From positions 1 to 34,654 of IMG/VR virus record IMGVR_UViG_3300005043_000148: DNA of 34,654 nucleotides. The stretch is one strand, 5' to 3'. A program made the position numbers and the translations under genes. This document shows, piece by piece, positions 6,028 to 15,024 of this stretch. The number at the start of each line of letters is the position of its first letter. The stretch's first letter is position 1. The notes under the pieces are model-generated. The model made no database searches, was not told the DNA's origin, and was given only the letters and a program-made list of their open reading frames with translations. Origin of the DNA: a virus (taxonomy: Duplodnaviria; Caudoviricetes).

Positions 6028-6681
6028 ATGAGAATTAGAGATCAAAAAATAAAAGACGAAAAACAATGGATAGAAGGTTATGAACATAATCTTAGGTTAG
6101 CTTATGACTTAATGAAAGACGAATTAAAAACCTTACATTCGGATAAAGTTAATCAAGGAAATACTATTAAGCTTGTACTGTGGCTGAATATTATTTTTGT
6201 GGGTATTTCAATAAAAGTTTCTGAAGAGGGAAGTGATATATATCTTCTTGGAATATTTTCTTTGATTGCTTTCTTTAGTATTTTTGTTGCCTTTGTAGGC
6301 TTAATGATGGGTAGGTATAGTGCTTATGCCTCTATGCGAAGAGCATCTTCATTTTATAAGCTCAACAATGACAAGTGGATAAAGACACAAGGCCTTGAAA
6401 CTGCTACTCAAACTGTTCAAAAGGCTATTAGATACAACGGTCTAATTATTATTAAGCGTGCTAAGTTGATAAGAATTTCAATGTATATCACTCTTAGTTC
6501 TCTATTCATGCTTTTGATTTTAAGTGCGCACACAGTTTATATAAAACAAGGAAATGAAATGGCAGATAAACCAAGCAAACCAGCGGTTACAGTTGTGCAG
6601 AACCCAAGTATTAAAAGAGCTAACGATAGTGCTCCAAAAACACCAAAAGCTACACCCGAATCAAACTCTTCAAAGAAGTAA
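6028..6681 (+). CDS. Moron membrane protein (about 3 TM) with a disordered Pro/Lys-rich tail
   Basis: Extended -10 TGTTATAAT at 5963-5971; hydrophobic segments; opposite strand to its neighbours. Confidence 0.75.
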   Translation: MRIRDQKIKDEKQWIEGYEHNLRLAYDLMKDELKTLHSDKVNQGNTIKLVLWLNIIFVGISIKVSEEGSDIYLLGIFSLIAFFSIFVAFVGLMMGRYSAYASMRRASSFYKLNNDKWIKTQGLETATQTVQKAIRYNGLIIIKRAKLIRISMYITLSSLFMLLILSAHTVYIKQGNEMADKPSKPAVTVVQNPSIKRANDSAPKTPKATPESNSSKK

Positions 6682-7388: not shown

Positions 7389-7664
7389 CTATGAAACTAG
7401 GTGTATGTTGTTTTGCTTGCAGTACTTTTTGAACCCGGGACAATTCTTTTCTAGATAAGTGAAGATTTTTTTGTCTAGGTTTGTACTTTGACCTTTTGGA
7501 TGCTTTTTGCTTACTCTTGTAAACTTGTTGTTTATGCGATTTGTCAATGAACCGATTGTTGTTTCAAGCAATTCGGCTGTGTTTTCTAAACTGTTTTGAT
7601 TCATAAGTAAAGAATTTTGTATGTTTTTGTAAAACGAAATCTCTTGATTAAATACCATGTACAC
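7389..7664 (-). CDS. Cro/Apl-like HTH regulator
   Basis: LENTAELLETTIGSLTNRIN HTH; first gene after the operator-overlapped leftward promoter; divergent from the repressor. Confidence 0.6.
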   Translation of the reverse strand: MYMVFNQEISFYKNIQNSLLMNQNSLENTAELLETTIGSLTNRINNKFTRVSKKHPKGQSTNLDKKIFTYLEKNCPGFKKYCKQNNIHLVS

Positions 7665-7739: not shown

Positions 7740-7768
7740 ATTATATGCAATTATGCATATAATGTCAA
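7740..7768 (-). promoter_or_regulatory. Leftward early promoter with operator
   Basis: Perfect TTGACA-N17-TATAAT on the minus strand. Palindrome TTATATGCA-ATTA-TGCATATAA (7741-7762) overlaps the -10 and spacer. Further half-sites at 7773-7793. Confidence 0.85.
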
Positions 7769-7802
7769 GTGTTTATGCATAAAATATGCAAAAAGGGTTA
7801 TT

Positions 7803-8204
7803 TTGAATACGATAGGGTATAGATTTTCAATTGCTTTAGATGCCGTTTATGGGGCTAGCAGTACAAAAAAGTGTGTTTCAGATTTAGGAGTAAGCCAAAG
7901 TACTATAGATAGAGGAAAGCGTGGTGATAGTCTTACAAAAACAATTTCATTATTTGCTGCTAAAAATAATATATCAACTTCTTGGATACTTACTGGTTCA
8001 GGGGAAATGATGACCGATGAGCGGTCAATTAACCAAGTAATCACTGGTAATAGCAATAATCAAGCAGGAAGAAATGTTCACTCCGGTGCTAATGCTTCTT
8101 CTGATCCTATTGTCGCGGCAATAGAATCTTTACTGGGTGAGCTTGACGCTAATGAAAAGCTTCAAGTCCTCAGTTATATAACAAGTTTAAAAGTAAAAAA
8201 TTAG
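7803..8204 (+). CDS. CI-like phage repressor (HTH, N/Q/G motif, helical C-terminus; no S24 peptidase)
   Basis: LGVSQSTIDR HTH and ISTSWILTGSGEM signature; TTG start; adjacent to the operators. Confidence 0.8.
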   Translation: MNTIGYRFSIALDAVYGASSTKKCVSDLGVSQSTIDRGKRGDSLTKTISLFAAKNNISTSWILTGSGEMMTDERSINQVITGNSNNQAGRNVHSGANASSDPIVAAIESLLGELDANEKLQVLSYITSLKVKN

Positions 8205-8210
8205 AAAAAT

Positions 8211-8762
8211 ATGAAATATATCAATGGACATCAAAACAATCAAGCAGGTAGGGATCTAACTATACACAGTAGTTTGGTTCATAATGTAAAGGTTTCCCCC
8301 AAGGACATAGAGTTAAAGGCCATTGTTAACCATGACTGGATAGTTCTTTCTGTTTATGTTGCTTCACTTGCCTTGATGTGGGGATTTCTCTATGTAACTA
8401 TTGTTTCAACAACAGTTTTGATACTAACAAGCATCGTTACTGGAGTAGGGATTGTTTTTTTAATTGAAGGTACTCAAAAGTTTATGTTGAAGTTTTCACC
8501 TTGGCATATAAAGTACATTGATGGAAAAATAATCTTAGATGGAAGAGAACGAAAGTTTTATGAAGAAATCTGGAGCGTAAGTTATAGGAAGAACTGGATA
8601 GGCAATGGGATTATCTCTTTTTATGGAGTAAATCCTAATAACAACAAGCCTTATCAACGAAAGATAAAGTTCTTATATAACGCAGAAGCGAAGTATGTGC
8701 ATGACTGTTTTATGGATGAAGATAGGATACGTAAGTATAAGGAAGGTTTGAGGTATAAGTGA
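8211..8762 (+). CDS. 2-TM membrane protein with N-terminal NNQAGRD motif and a C-terminal PH-like beta domain
   Basis: TM segments at about aa 44-64 and 68-85; 6 nt from the repressor stop; motif shared with the repressor. Confidence 0.75.
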   Translation: MKYINGHQNNQAGRDLTIHSSLVHNVKVSPKDIELKAIVNHDWIVLSVYVASLALMWGFLYVTIVSTTVLILTSIVTGVGIVFLIEGTQKFMLKFSPWHIKYIDGKIILDGRERKFYEEIWSVSYRKNWIGNGIISFYGVNPNNNKPYQRKIKFLYNAEAKYVHDCFMDEDRIRKYKEGLRYK

Positions 8763-8801: not shown

Positions 8802-9536
8802 TTGGCAATTATTAAAACTGAATACGAGACACTCTCGACTAAAGAGAAAACAAAACAAACCCGTGAAAGTCCTGTAATAGTATGGATATTAACAATAATG
8901 TGGCTATTTGTCTGGACTATGTTTCCATTCATTATCTATATTATTAATGGGGCTTCTTTTTCTTTTAAGGACATAGACTTTAATGAAGTTGGAGATTATT
9001 TAGCAGGTGTCGCTGCTCCCGTGGCATTCTTTTGGCTTGTGTATGGTTATTATCAGCAAGGTAAGGAACTCAAGCTAAATAACAAAACCTTAAGCCTACA
9101 GTACGAGGAATTAAGACATTCAGTAAGTGCTCAGCAGGATCAGGCAGCCAGTATGAAAGAGCAGTTAAGTATTGTTGTAAGAGAGAAGTTCTATCCAAAA
9201 TTTAAGATTAAGAAGTTTAATTATCTAAAAGATGAAGCATACATAGGTATTGTAATAGAAAATGTGTCCAATGAAGTTTATTCGACTAATATAGAAGTTC
9301 TTTCTGATGGAATGATCCTTGCTAATACAATAGACAGTAATGTAAAGTATATCGATTTCGAGATTCAAACTATTGATGATATACAAAAGCAATTTAAAAT
9401 ACTTCTGAAAATAGATTTTATCTTAGAAATTGGGCATAGTGTTGAAGAATTTTATGAGATTAATTACAGCACTTTAAAACATAATGTGTTTAATGAACCA
9501 ATTTTAGAAAAATCTAAGCAGGAGGTAATCGGGTGA
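8802..9536 (+). CDS. 2-TM plus coiled-coil membrane cargo protein (possible exclusion/Abi-type)
   Basis: NEVGDYLAGVAAPVAFFWLVYGYYQQGKEL..LQYEEL, a recurrent prophage-cargo N-terminal pattern. Function is an inference. Confidence 0.6.
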   Translation: MAIIKTEYETLSTKEKTKQTRESPVIVWILTIMWLFVWTMFPFIIYIINGASFSFKDIDFNEVGDYLAGVAAPVAFFWLVYGYYQQGKELKLNNKTLSLQYEELRHSVSAQQDQAASMKEQLSIVVREKFYPKFKIKKFNYLKDEAYIGIVIENVSNEVYSTNIEVLSDGMILANTIDSNVKYIDFEIQTIDDIQKQFKILLKIDFILEIGHSVEEFYEINYSTLKHNVFNEPILEKSKQEVIG

Positions 9537-9970
9537 AATTATATTGTGATACACAGTTCAAGGCTGCCGGTAAAACATTAAAAAAACATCTAGTTGTTGT
9601 TGAAAGAGGTATTCCTAGAATCATCTACTATAAAATGTATTTTGAGCAAAAAAAACCTACCTATAAACAAGTTTCATTTAATGAGGAAATCATAAAAGGA
9701 CTCATAGATATGCAAAAAGATAGAAAAATATCGGAAGTAGACTTCAAAGATATTGTGGTTAATATTAAGCATACGTATGAAGAATTAAAGAGTACAAATG
9801 AAGAAGGAGATACTTTACAGGCTTTGACAAGTATCTATAATGAGATGGGAGAAGAAGTGCATTTAGGAAATGGTGTTTTACTTGAGGATGAAAGCTTTGC
9901 TTTTTTTTATGACTTTTCTGATATTATTGCAGGAAAGACCAGTGCTATATTTCCAAAGGGGTTAGTATGA
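9533..9970 (+). CDS. Hypothetical protein, immunity-region cargo
   Basis: GTGA overlap, GGAGG RBS. Confidence 0.7.
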   Translation: MKLYCDTQFKAAGKTLKKHLVVVERGIPRIIYYKMYFEQKKPTYKQVSFNEEIIKGLIDMQKDRKISEVDFKDIVVNIKHTYEELKSTNEEGDTLQALTSIYNEMGEEVHLGNGVLLEDESFAFFYDFSDIIAGKTSAIFPKGLV

Positions 9971-10326
9971 GTGTATTTTCAGATATAAACGATTTACATG
10001 ATTCTGACTCTGTGGCATTTAATGTTCTTATCCAGAAAGCTATGAATAAAATTGTCAAGTTTGATGACAATACCTTTTCTAATACAAGTTTTGAGCCTAA
10101 AGAACTAGAAAGTTCTGAATTTAAAATATATTTTGGTGAACGATCAATTCGAGAAGCTATGGGTAATGGAACAAGTAGAACACATGTTGAGGCGGCTCTT
10201 TATTACGTAATCAATAAAAGTAATGGACATATCATTACAGATAAAAATATCTTAGAGGGATGTAGTAGTTCAATGCAGTCTCATCTTGATGGAAAATATG
10301 ATCTCAAAAACAATAGGTGGGTGTAA
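9967..10326 (+). CDS. Hypothetical protein, immunity-region cargo
   Basis: ATGA overlap with the previous gene. Confidence 0.7.
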   Translation: MSVFSDINDLHDSDSVAFNVLIQKAMNKIVKFDDNTFSNTSFEPKELESSEFKIYFGERSIREAMGNGTSRTHVEAALYYVINKSNGHIITDKNILEGCSSSMQSHLDGKYDLKNNRWV

Positions 10327-10443
10327 GAGTACTGGTTAAAAGCTAATGCTCTAGATATGTTAGTTAATACCGTGCACTTCACTTTTCTTAGATATATAAT
10401 CATGATAAATAAAAATAAAAGTACTGGCCAGTACTCCATAATA

Positions 10444-10935
10444 TTAGTCTTCTACTAAGGCATAGGCCTTAGACTCTACCAGTATCTCATAGTTTATGAA
10501 GGGTGCTTCTTTTATCTCTACACTTAAAAGTCTAGGCTTTATCTTATCGTCTAGTTCTTTATATACCAATTCATCGGCTATCTCTGCTGCTACATAACCA
10601 AGTCTTCTTTTTCCTGTGGAGGACTTTCCATAGATGGCTATAGCATTGTCATCATGTTTGTTGTTTGGTTCTCTTTTAAATGACAGCTCTAGGTTCTCAC
10701 CTGTTGCCCATTTGACACAGGCATCCATTCTATAGGTTACACCTTGGATGAAAAAATCATCATCTTCATAAACTTCATACCCTTCTGGAATATCTATAAC
10801 TTTAAAAGCATCTTGTTTTTTAGTAAAAGCTTTATCGTTAGGTTGACTAGGCTTGTCTTCTTGTAAATACCCTTTGACTACATAATACAGTACCCAAAGT
10901 AAAAATCCATAAAATGGATAGGCATAAATACTCAT
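10444..10935 (-). CDS. Membrane-anchored HIRAN domain protein
   Basis: N-terminal TM; IQGVTYR..LSFKREPNNKHDDNAIAIY..LGYV HIRAN signature. Confidence 0.85.
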   Translation of the reverse strand: MSIYAYPFYGFLLWVLYYVVKGYLQEDKPSQPNDKAFTKKQDAFKVIDIPEGYEVYEDDDFFIQGVTYRMDACVKWATGENLELSFKREPNNKHDDNAIAIYGKSSTGKRRLGYVAAEIADELVYKELDDKIKPRLLSVEIKEAPFINYEILVESKAYALVED

Positions 10936-11276
10936 TACTTAGCTTGCAAATCTCTAGTGTTAACCCCGTTAGATGGTCCATTATCGTTGTAAGTAAAATT
11001 TACTACAATATCATTCTTTACCGTATAAACATATTGTCTTACGCCTTCACCAGTACCTAATCTGTAAGATAAGTATTCTTCATCTCCTATAACTTTAGAG
11101 TCTTCAGGAAGTCCTAATACTTCTATTAATTGTTTTCTTGTCACCTTATTAATAGGAAAGTTCTTAGCGTAAGAAGTTGGTGCTGTCCATATTGATGGCT
11201 TCTTGATCCCGTACTTACTAGCTCCGCTACATCCTATAAAAACAACTGCAAGAGCAGCAAACAATATTTTTTTCAT
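10935..11276 (-). CDS. Lipoprotein, SmpA/BamE-like fold
   Basis: Signal peptide MKKILFAALAVVFIG-C; VTRKQLIEVLGLP motif. Confidence 0.75.
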   Translation of the reverse strand: MKKILFAALAVVFIGCSGASKYGIKKPSIWTAPTSYAKNFPINKVTRKQLIEVLGLPEDSKVIGDEEYLSYRLGTGEGVRQYVYTVKNDIVVNFTYNDNGPSNGVNTRDLQAK

Positions 11277-11345: not shown

Positions 11346-11429
11346 ATCGCTATCCAACCTCAAAACATGAGTAGCAGTTGGAACCTTTATGGTGCTGCTC
11401 TTCATGTTTTGATCCAAAAAGGAGCCTTT

Positions 11430-11936
11430 ATGGCACTTGCTAAAGACCCATTTTTCTACAAAATCACTCATCAGGCTATCGAAGCCTTTGGTGAGAGACA
11501 TAATATCACTGCACGACAATACTTTGCCCAACTACTAGGCTACAAAGGCCCTAACTCTAACATCCAAATTGGCACGATGCTCAATTATAACACATACAAT
11601 CCCCTTACTCCTAGGCCTATGTCTGTTGATCAACTGTTAGTGGTGATGGATGAGTGTGAAGATGACAGACAAATTATCATAGATGCAATTTGTAAGCGTT
11701 TTGGTGGTCAGTTTGTCAAAGATAAAACTGTTACTAAGGCAGCGGATAAGTGCATCAAGGATGACTTAATGAAACTTTCTTTTATGACAGGTAACTTGTC
11801 TAACCTGTTTTTACAATATATGAAAGATGGTGTTCTTGATGTAGAAGAAGGGCAGGACCTTGAATCTAAAGGCCATGAAATACGCCAAGAGATGAAGAAC
11901 ATAGAGAACTACTTTAAATCTATTAAGCAAGACTAG
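11430..11936 (+). CDS. Phage 186-type CII (CP76 family)-like regulator
   Basis: MSVDQLLVVM..IIIDAICKRFGGQFV..DGVLDVEE pattern; AAGGAG RBS favours the 11430 start. Confidence 0.7.
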   Translation: MALAKDPFFYKITHQAIEAFGERHNITARQYFAQLLGYKGPNSNIQIGTMLNYNTYNPLTPRPMSVDQLLVVMDECEDDRQIIIDAICKRFGGQFVKDKTVTKAADKCIKDDLMKLSFMTGNLSNLFLQYMKDGVLDVEEGQDLESKGHEIRQEMKNIENYFKSIKQD

Positions 11937-14778: not shown

Positions 14779-15024
14779 ATGATGGTGGAGATGGCAGATA
14801 TTATAGAAAGAATCAAAGATGTTATTAGTAAAGAGCATGAAGGCCGTAAGGTGTTCGATAAGAATGTAGCGCACACACTTGGCTTCTCTCCTGATAATCT
14901 AGGTACAAAGAAGTCTCGGAACTTAATCCCTTATGATGAGCTCACTATGTTTTGTTGGCAGCATAAGGTTAGCTTTGACTGGTTGTTCTTTGGCCTTGGT
15001 AAGATGGAGATGAACTATGCCTAA
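14779..15024 (+). CDS. Stand-alone CI-type HTH protein
   Basis: IIERIK..DKNVAHTLGFS..RNLIPY..VSFDWLFFG. Confidence 0.75.
   Translation: MMVEMADIIERIKDVISKEHEGRKVFDKNVAHTLGFSPDNLGTKKSRNLIPYDELTMFCWQHKVSFDWLFFGLGKMEMNYA

Follow-up and report, generated by a model that had tools for sequence, protein, structure and literature searches.

A short tag shared by phage immunity repressors and adjacent membrane proteins, arranged like an amyloid signalling pair

In BASS pairs, a receptor that carries the motif at its N-terminus and an effector that carries it at its C-terminus are encoded by collinear genes often lying at most 10 bp apart (10.1101/2020.01.06.895854), and the Bab/Agp antiphage system of E. 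coli (BASS11) shows that such a pair works in a prophage (10.1101/2024.11.07.622273). Qtip and the smORF non-proteolytic antirepressors inactivate a phage repressor without cleavage and independently of SOS, by means of a cognate phage protein (PMC10432266). In the lambda cI-rexA-rexB operon, genes co-expressed with the repressor take part in its control, with RexA binding CI and assisting the switch to lysis, and RexB modulating (10.1101/2021.04.19.439022). Here we describe a prophage locus at which the immunity repressor and the membrane protein encoded directly downstream (the partner) carry the same short tag. Judged from the sequences compared here, this tag is real, conserved and widespread across unrelated phages, and changes in step in the two proteins.

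Like BASS1-10 (Dyrka et al., 10.1101/2020.01.06.895854), the locus combines a short G/N/Q/V/I-rich motif with adjacent collinear genes and a tiny gap, one copy being N-terminal and the other placed after a globular domain, and there are several subtypes that match within pairs. Unlike BASS1-10, it shows by Pfam and PADLOC neither an NLR (NB-ARC/NACHT) nor an effector of the Bell, TIR, CHAT, hydrolase or cyclase kind; the output would be an HTH repressor, the N-terminal copy belongs to a small membrane protein, the hosts are not multicellular bacteria, and the repressor copy is internal in the window phage. Bab/Agp is likewise a prophage-borne adjacent pair sharing an amyloid-type motif, which is placed at the N-terminus of one protein and at the C-terminus of its mate, but its output is a cell-death domain, and the main text of the preprint contains no occurrence of HTH, repressor, Lamassu or ABC (10.1101/2024.11.07.622273). 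In contrast to the partner, Qtip and the smORFs are small soluble proteins, not membrane proteins, under a separate transcription factor, and no shared sequence tag is reported in the available text (PMC10432266). For lambda cI-rexA-rexB we found no homology to our locus, and the available text gives no motif shared by CI and Rex (10.1101/2021.04.19.439022). Judging from titles and abstract openings, we found no publication on a repressor–partner pair with an amyloid-like tag, with the reservation that the domain partners of BASS11 given in supplements and figures could include HTH; the available parts of PMC12261475, PMC13506858 and PMC8195603 do not mention such a pair either.

The window, by which we mean the whole stretch of 34,654 nucleotides analysed, is a tailed prophage with an integrase, a CII-like gene, DnaB, terminases, portal, capsid and tape measure according to Pfam and PHROGs. 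Relatives of the partner belong to the Campylobacterota, occurring in Sulfurimonas, in its phage SNW-1 and in an uncultured Campylobacterales record. Variable cargo (8802-11276) separates the repressor from the CII-like gene (11367-11936) and comprises a PHROG 9267 membrane protein, two ORFs of no known family, a HIRAN protein (10444-10935) and a lipoprotein-like ORF; at three related loci (L004, L007 and L008) the cargo between these two genes has other contents.

The ORF at 7803..8204 (+ strand, 133 aa) matches PHROGs 8, 4 and 2328, which are repressor or regulator families. We take it to be the immunity repressor because of these matches, because the divergent small gene next to it is conserved in L004, and because the gap between the two holds four ATGCA boxes that are echoed in L004 and L007. 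The divergent gene (7389..7664, - strand) is without a Pfam or PHROG match, would be Cro-like by position, and shares 31% identity over 89 aa with the divergent neighbour of the L004 repressor. The candidate operator boxes (7740..7794, no strand assigned) lie at 7745, 7753, 7775 and 7786 and include a perfect 10-bp inverted repeat at 7740-7763; no other 60-nt stretch of the window holds four ATGCA, and ATGCA repeats spaced 22 nt apart also precede the L004 and L007 repressors. An AlphaFold2 model built on five sequences (mean pLDDT 63.8) gives an HTH domain at aa 4-64, a low-confidence linker at 72-101 and a C-terminal helix pair at 102-132. This is the lambdoid CI-type layout, with an N-terminal HTH divergent from a gene that is Cro-like by position only, across repeated candidate operators. 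Self-cleaving lambdoid CIs additionally have a C-terminal S24 peptidase domain, which is present in the tagged relatives L008 and G048 but absent from the window repressor. The latter has no Pfam match at E<=0.01, in agreement with the preliminary description, which had noted the lack of an S24 autocleavage domain; its homologues match PF07022 weakly.

The partner (8211..8762, + strand, 183 aa) consists of the N-terminal tag, two hydrophobic segments and a beta-rich C-terminal domain, and has no Pfam family above cut-off. Two membrane segments joined by a short uncharged loop are predicted at 8334..8474 (+ strand), and with K+R counts of 3, 0 and 3 before, between and after them both ends of the protein are probably cytoplasmic; the structure model draws one continuous helix (30-95) and does not resolve a hairpin of two membrane segments. 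The C-terminal part (8496..8759, + strand) is a probable PH/PTB-like domain. Its best Foldseek matches are PTB/PH domains, with a best E of 0.025 to a PTB domain and none at E<=0.001; VIA-align gives Z 6.4-6.8 to PH-type folds against a tool threshold of 8 (rmsd 3.5, 86 aligned residues, model pLDDT 62), and the Atlas leads are PH_40 and bPH_7 (0.83 each). No known fold matches above the Foldseek and VIA-align thresholds, and the PH-like half of the earlier '2-TM/PH-like' label is weakly backed (best Z 6.8).

Six nucleotides separate the two genes. The first tag copy, ITGNSNNQAGRNV, lies in the repressor linker (8040..8078, + strand, aa 80-92), and the second, INGHQNNQAGRDL, at the partner N-terminus (8220..8258, + strand, aa 4-16). 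Eight of the 13 residues and 27 of the 39 nucleotides are identical, and four of the eight shared residues use different codons (GGT/GGA, AAT/AAC, GGA/GGT and AGA/AGG). On recomputation, the coordinates, identities, synonymous differences and gap given in the preliminary description all proved correct. Shuffling both proteins reached 8 of 13 in 8 out of 3000 shuffles, and among 662 pairs of close ORFs on the same strand of the genome, 18 score at least 8 of 13; on inspection most of these proved to be paralogues or hydrophobic stretches. Of 3162 ORFs, the repressor and the partner alone contain the strict pattern G..NNQ.G.[ND]. Taken alone, the window pair is a modest match and suggestive; we take the shared tag to be real because it recurs in homologues. 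AlphaFold2 places both copies at pLDDT <50. Effector motifs are C-terminal, but the repressor copy lies inside the protein, ahead of a helical domain. The RHIM core is the tetrad [IV]Q[ILV]G, which is absent from both proteins, neither of which matches a Pfam RHIM family at E<=0.01; the RHIM likeness proposed earlier is therefore dropped. The QAGRD core presumably resembles BASS motifs. Overall, the organisation resembles that of amyloid signalling pairs, but as BASS and RHIM are defined the tag belongs to neither.

Across the partner family (38 proteins, of which five shorter than 180 aa were dropped), G6 is invariant and N9 nearly so in 14 aligned members, down to 25% identity. With N/G/Q-rich defined as at least seven N, G or Q in a 14-residue window, 28 of the 33 full-length members have such a stretch within their first 50 residues, and one of the 33 has one elsewhere, that is, beyond residue 60. 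Genome searches for the family returned only G000 and G044 (2/301, 1/401 and 3/353, the last including one weak, stop-containing match in G681), and viral scans only L004. An exact scan of IMG/VR for the window tag gave nine loci, one being the L004 phage and eight off-frame chance matches.

The tag is found in both genes at all six Campylobacterota loci (the window, L004, L007, L008, SNW-1 and G048, the last being L028 and SNW-1 being L015), which span three repressor types, two of the repressors being CIs with S24. L004 and L007 have the repressor type of the window. The L008 repressor is a CI with S24, 28% identical over the HTH, and SNW-1 has an HTH_3-type repressor whose HTH does not align with that of the window; its two tags share 11 of 14 residues, six of them through other codons. 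G048, found blind by the tag profile, combines a CI with S24 and a different membrane partner. In both L008 and G048 the repressor and the partner carry a different tag subtype, even though the L008 partner is 55% identical to that of the window. The true pairing of these six loci came out at 4 of 720 permutations, a figure to be read as indicative since the loci are related and the tag itself led to one of them. The repressor copy is internal in the window and its five relatives. A second, divergent and also tagged partner paralogue stands in tandem at L004:4569-5123, L007:1560-2216 and L008:6073-6690, the window having one copy only, and partner 1 of L008 has two tag repeats. The tag profile matched six of 351 family genomes: G000 and G044 (both in the training set), G048 and G691 (pairs), and G170 and G013 (single weak matches beside unrelated genes); among phylum genomes it matched 2 of 401. 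A scan with the SNW-1 repressor found no locus. SNW-1 was prepared after mitomycin C, with coverage only slightly above that of the host, which has no bearing on its induction either way (PMC11290706).

Beyond these loci, scanning IMG/VR with the back-translated sister motif gave 76 viral loci, 75 of which combine a tagged repressor tail with a tagged partner N-terminus (L089 is no pair). A script called 71 of them as adjacent pairs; L045 and L091, adjacent but with one changed residue, were added by inspection, and in L066 and L095 repressor and partner are separated by a 114-aa gene and both keep their tags. Many of these loci are copies of one enterobacterial prophage, leaving 21 pairs that are non-redundant at 70% identity. 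In all 21 the repressor tag is C-terminal, and in 20 of them the pattern matched the partner only, so that the repressor copy was not selected by the scan. A hydrophobic segment is present in 18 of the 21 partners, and 15 of the 21 repressors match HTH families, with no S24 match in any. Within these 21 pairs of one subtype no co-variation was seen (1851 of 10000 permutations).

Matched pairs of different subtypes were found among named phages. Eight were chosen by repressor similarity from the 60 matches listed in two repressor searches, the queries of which included the repressor tail; this tail is covered by the B3 match, so B3 is not blind. Five carry matched pairs (B3, KS10, RsoM1USA, YO037_1 and YO107_2), two neither copy (Mana and Dobby), and Komp_PAO1_1 (L120) has a tag-like repressor tail with no tagged neighbour within about 1 kb; its partner may lie elsewhere or have been lost. 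The true pairing was the best of 120 permutations for the five matched pairs, 5 of 5040 for the seven phages with a same-strand next gene (untagged pairs included), and 0 of 100000 for all 13 pairs, on samples that are small and with kin that are not independent. The motif therefore both co-occurs and co-varies in repressor–neighbour pairs, a point that the preliminary description had proposed to check, with 75 of 76 scanned loci paired and subtypes matching within loci. Cognate specificity appears loose, since only 5 of the 13 repressors score highest with their own partner.

Does such matching require any link between the two proteins? The partner N-terminus could instead be a local duplication of a low-complexity repressor linker, its copies being kept for self-oligomerisation or drifting. 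Adjacency of the genes and the nucleotide identity in the window fit this, duplication would also yield tags that match within a locus, and of the four homologous repressors one, P0005, keeps the same HTH though it lacks the tag found in the other three. On the other hand, 132 of the 168 shared tag residues in the 21 non-redundant pairs use different codons, which upholds the earlier suggestion of protein-level selection; the tags persist despite the inserted gene in L066 and L095; and the partner family keeps its tag at 25% identity, in front of different repressor types. Control regulators argue against it as well. In the best 30 PF07022 loci from 191 family genomes, 14 of which represent one chromosomal regulator, no tag was found in the 60 residues after the HTH (0/30) or at the start of the next gene (0/21 with a called next gene), and pair scores were 10-21, against 25-57 for tagged pairs. 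As none of the 30 is tagged, the tag is not a generic linker feature. We consider duplication without a link very improbable, and a physical cognate link of some kind between repressor and partner very likely.

The chromosomal regulator among these controls (L123 at G000:C11:3769-4116, and 14 of the 30 loci L124-L153) is a CI-like HTH protein with S24 of about 220 aa that precedes a lipoprotein-like gene across the host family, and is a candidate self-cleaving regulator of the host by its sequence. The host lineage is not known to encode LexA.

What the link does is a separate matter. We tentatively propose, at somewhat short of an even chance, that co-assembly of the cognate tags as a beta-arch lets the partner capture the repressor at the membrane and so inactivate it, the partner likely being an antirepressor. 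Repressor and partner would be co-transcribed in the lysogen, with the partner's tag exposed to the cytoplasm; on an envelope or infection cue the partner would cluster, its tag would template capture of the repressor, the tags stacking as a beta-arch in the manner of amyloid signalling, and capture at the membrane would derepress the promoter at the ATGCA boxes. This scheme would need a tight off state, as lysogens probably express the partner together with the repressor. The direction from membrane protein as input to repressor as output is drawn by analogy with BASS, in which sensors carry the motif at the N-terminus and output proteins at the C-terminus. Among the proteobacterial partners, two show weak matches to the PHROG 245 anti-repressor Ant (E 4e-6 and 0.004), the only such match, as a search of the partners for an ORF6C/antirepressor Pfam family found none. 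Partner domains otherwise differ widely between loci with no common signal evident, and the KS10 partner, gp12, has no obvious membrane segment by eye.

A blind tag search also led to an ABC-3C/Lamassu-like operon beside an integrase-like gene (L029:1250-3066, G691:C145). In this operon the tag closes a 77-aa ORF with one hydrophobic segment and opens the gene after it, CTD12 (PF20279, E 1.7e-8), the two copies being identical at 11 of 17 residues; an MC6-like gene and an LmuB-like ATPase follow. The tag polarity is that of BASS, C-terminal on the small hydrophobic protein and N-terminal on CTD12, which by sequence would tie the tag family to sensor–effector wiring. Judged by title, no work on such a tag turned up in the literature on Lamassu and amyloids.

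The same link could run in the other direction or to another output: a repressor that is resident, cleaved, or derived from a related superinfecting phage would set off the partner, which would then serve in exclusion or as an abortive effector; alternatively, lysogeny would be favoured by a partner that anchors and stabilises the repressor. Membrane proteins of repressor operons can be parts of a defence, as with lambda RexA/RexB (10.1101/2021.04.19.439022), the divergent paralogues of the partner that stand in tandem at three loci resemble defence cargo, and the loose cognate specificity fits as well. We nevertheless regard this as unlikely, given that the partner bears the N-terminal, sensor-type copy, the hydrophobic, effector-like protein of the G691 operon bears a C-terminal one as repressors do, the partner has no PADLOC match, and two partners have an Ant-like domain.

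Whether the proposed capture by the partner would involve amyloid at all is a further point. One repressor dimer and the partner could instead make an ordinary stoichiometric contact, through a beta-hairpin or a short solenoid, that would hold the repressor at the membrane with no amyloid or prion behaviour involved, and every co-occurrence and co-variation result fits this equally. The core is short, at 13-20 aa versus about 25 aa for BASS (10.1101/2020.01.06.895854), and an irreversible polymer is hard to square with a repressor that has to stay active. Conversely, the same rather than a complementary sequence on both proteins is typical of in-register homotypic stacking, the composition of the tag (G, N, Q, V, I) matches BASS, and partner 1 of L008 carries the tag twice; a purely stoichiometric contact thus seems improbable to us.

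For the S24-less window repressor, the tag route could replace self-cleavage. The L008 and G048 repressors retain both the Ala-Gly site and the S24 Ser and Lys motifs, so that cleavage and catalytic motifs are intact-looking in sequence, with the tag upstream of the cleavage site; here the tag route would add to cleavage, the tag staying on the DNA-binding fragment afterwards. The tag is thus not a substitute for SOS induction throughout the family, and the SOS-independent control put forward earlier does not hold as a general trait, fitting the window phage at most. We hold it to be rather doubtful that a widespread class of temperate phages, comprising Campylobacterota prophages, the Mu-like B3 and KS10, and P2-like phages, runs its lysis–lysogeny decision by amyloid signalling. 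In such a scheme interchangeable membrane sensors would template cross-beta assembly of the immunity repressor through the shared tag, so that induction would need no cleavage and might be heritable, and effectors of Lamassu-like defence systems would be wired by that tag family too.

If capture through the tag is true, it would be an undescribed way to control the awakening of prophages, and would bear on how repressors without a self-cleaving domain are inactivated and on which cues other than DNA damage induce prophages, both of which are open questions. In many phages, a portable tag that couples diverse membrane proteins with diverse repressors would reveal the missing partners, and amyloid-type signalling would reach beyond cell death to transcriptional control. 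The coupling is directly testable in phages such as Pseudomonas phage B3 (ORF18/ORF20).

Two further genes of the window deserve mention. A second small CI-type HTH protein (14779-15024; PF07022, E 0.0011) lies with replication genes on one side and packaging genes on the other. Furthermore, a 217-aa membrane protein (6028-6681; PHROG 19900) ends in 40 residues that begin with an internal Met and are rich in P, S and K, like a fused small peptide.
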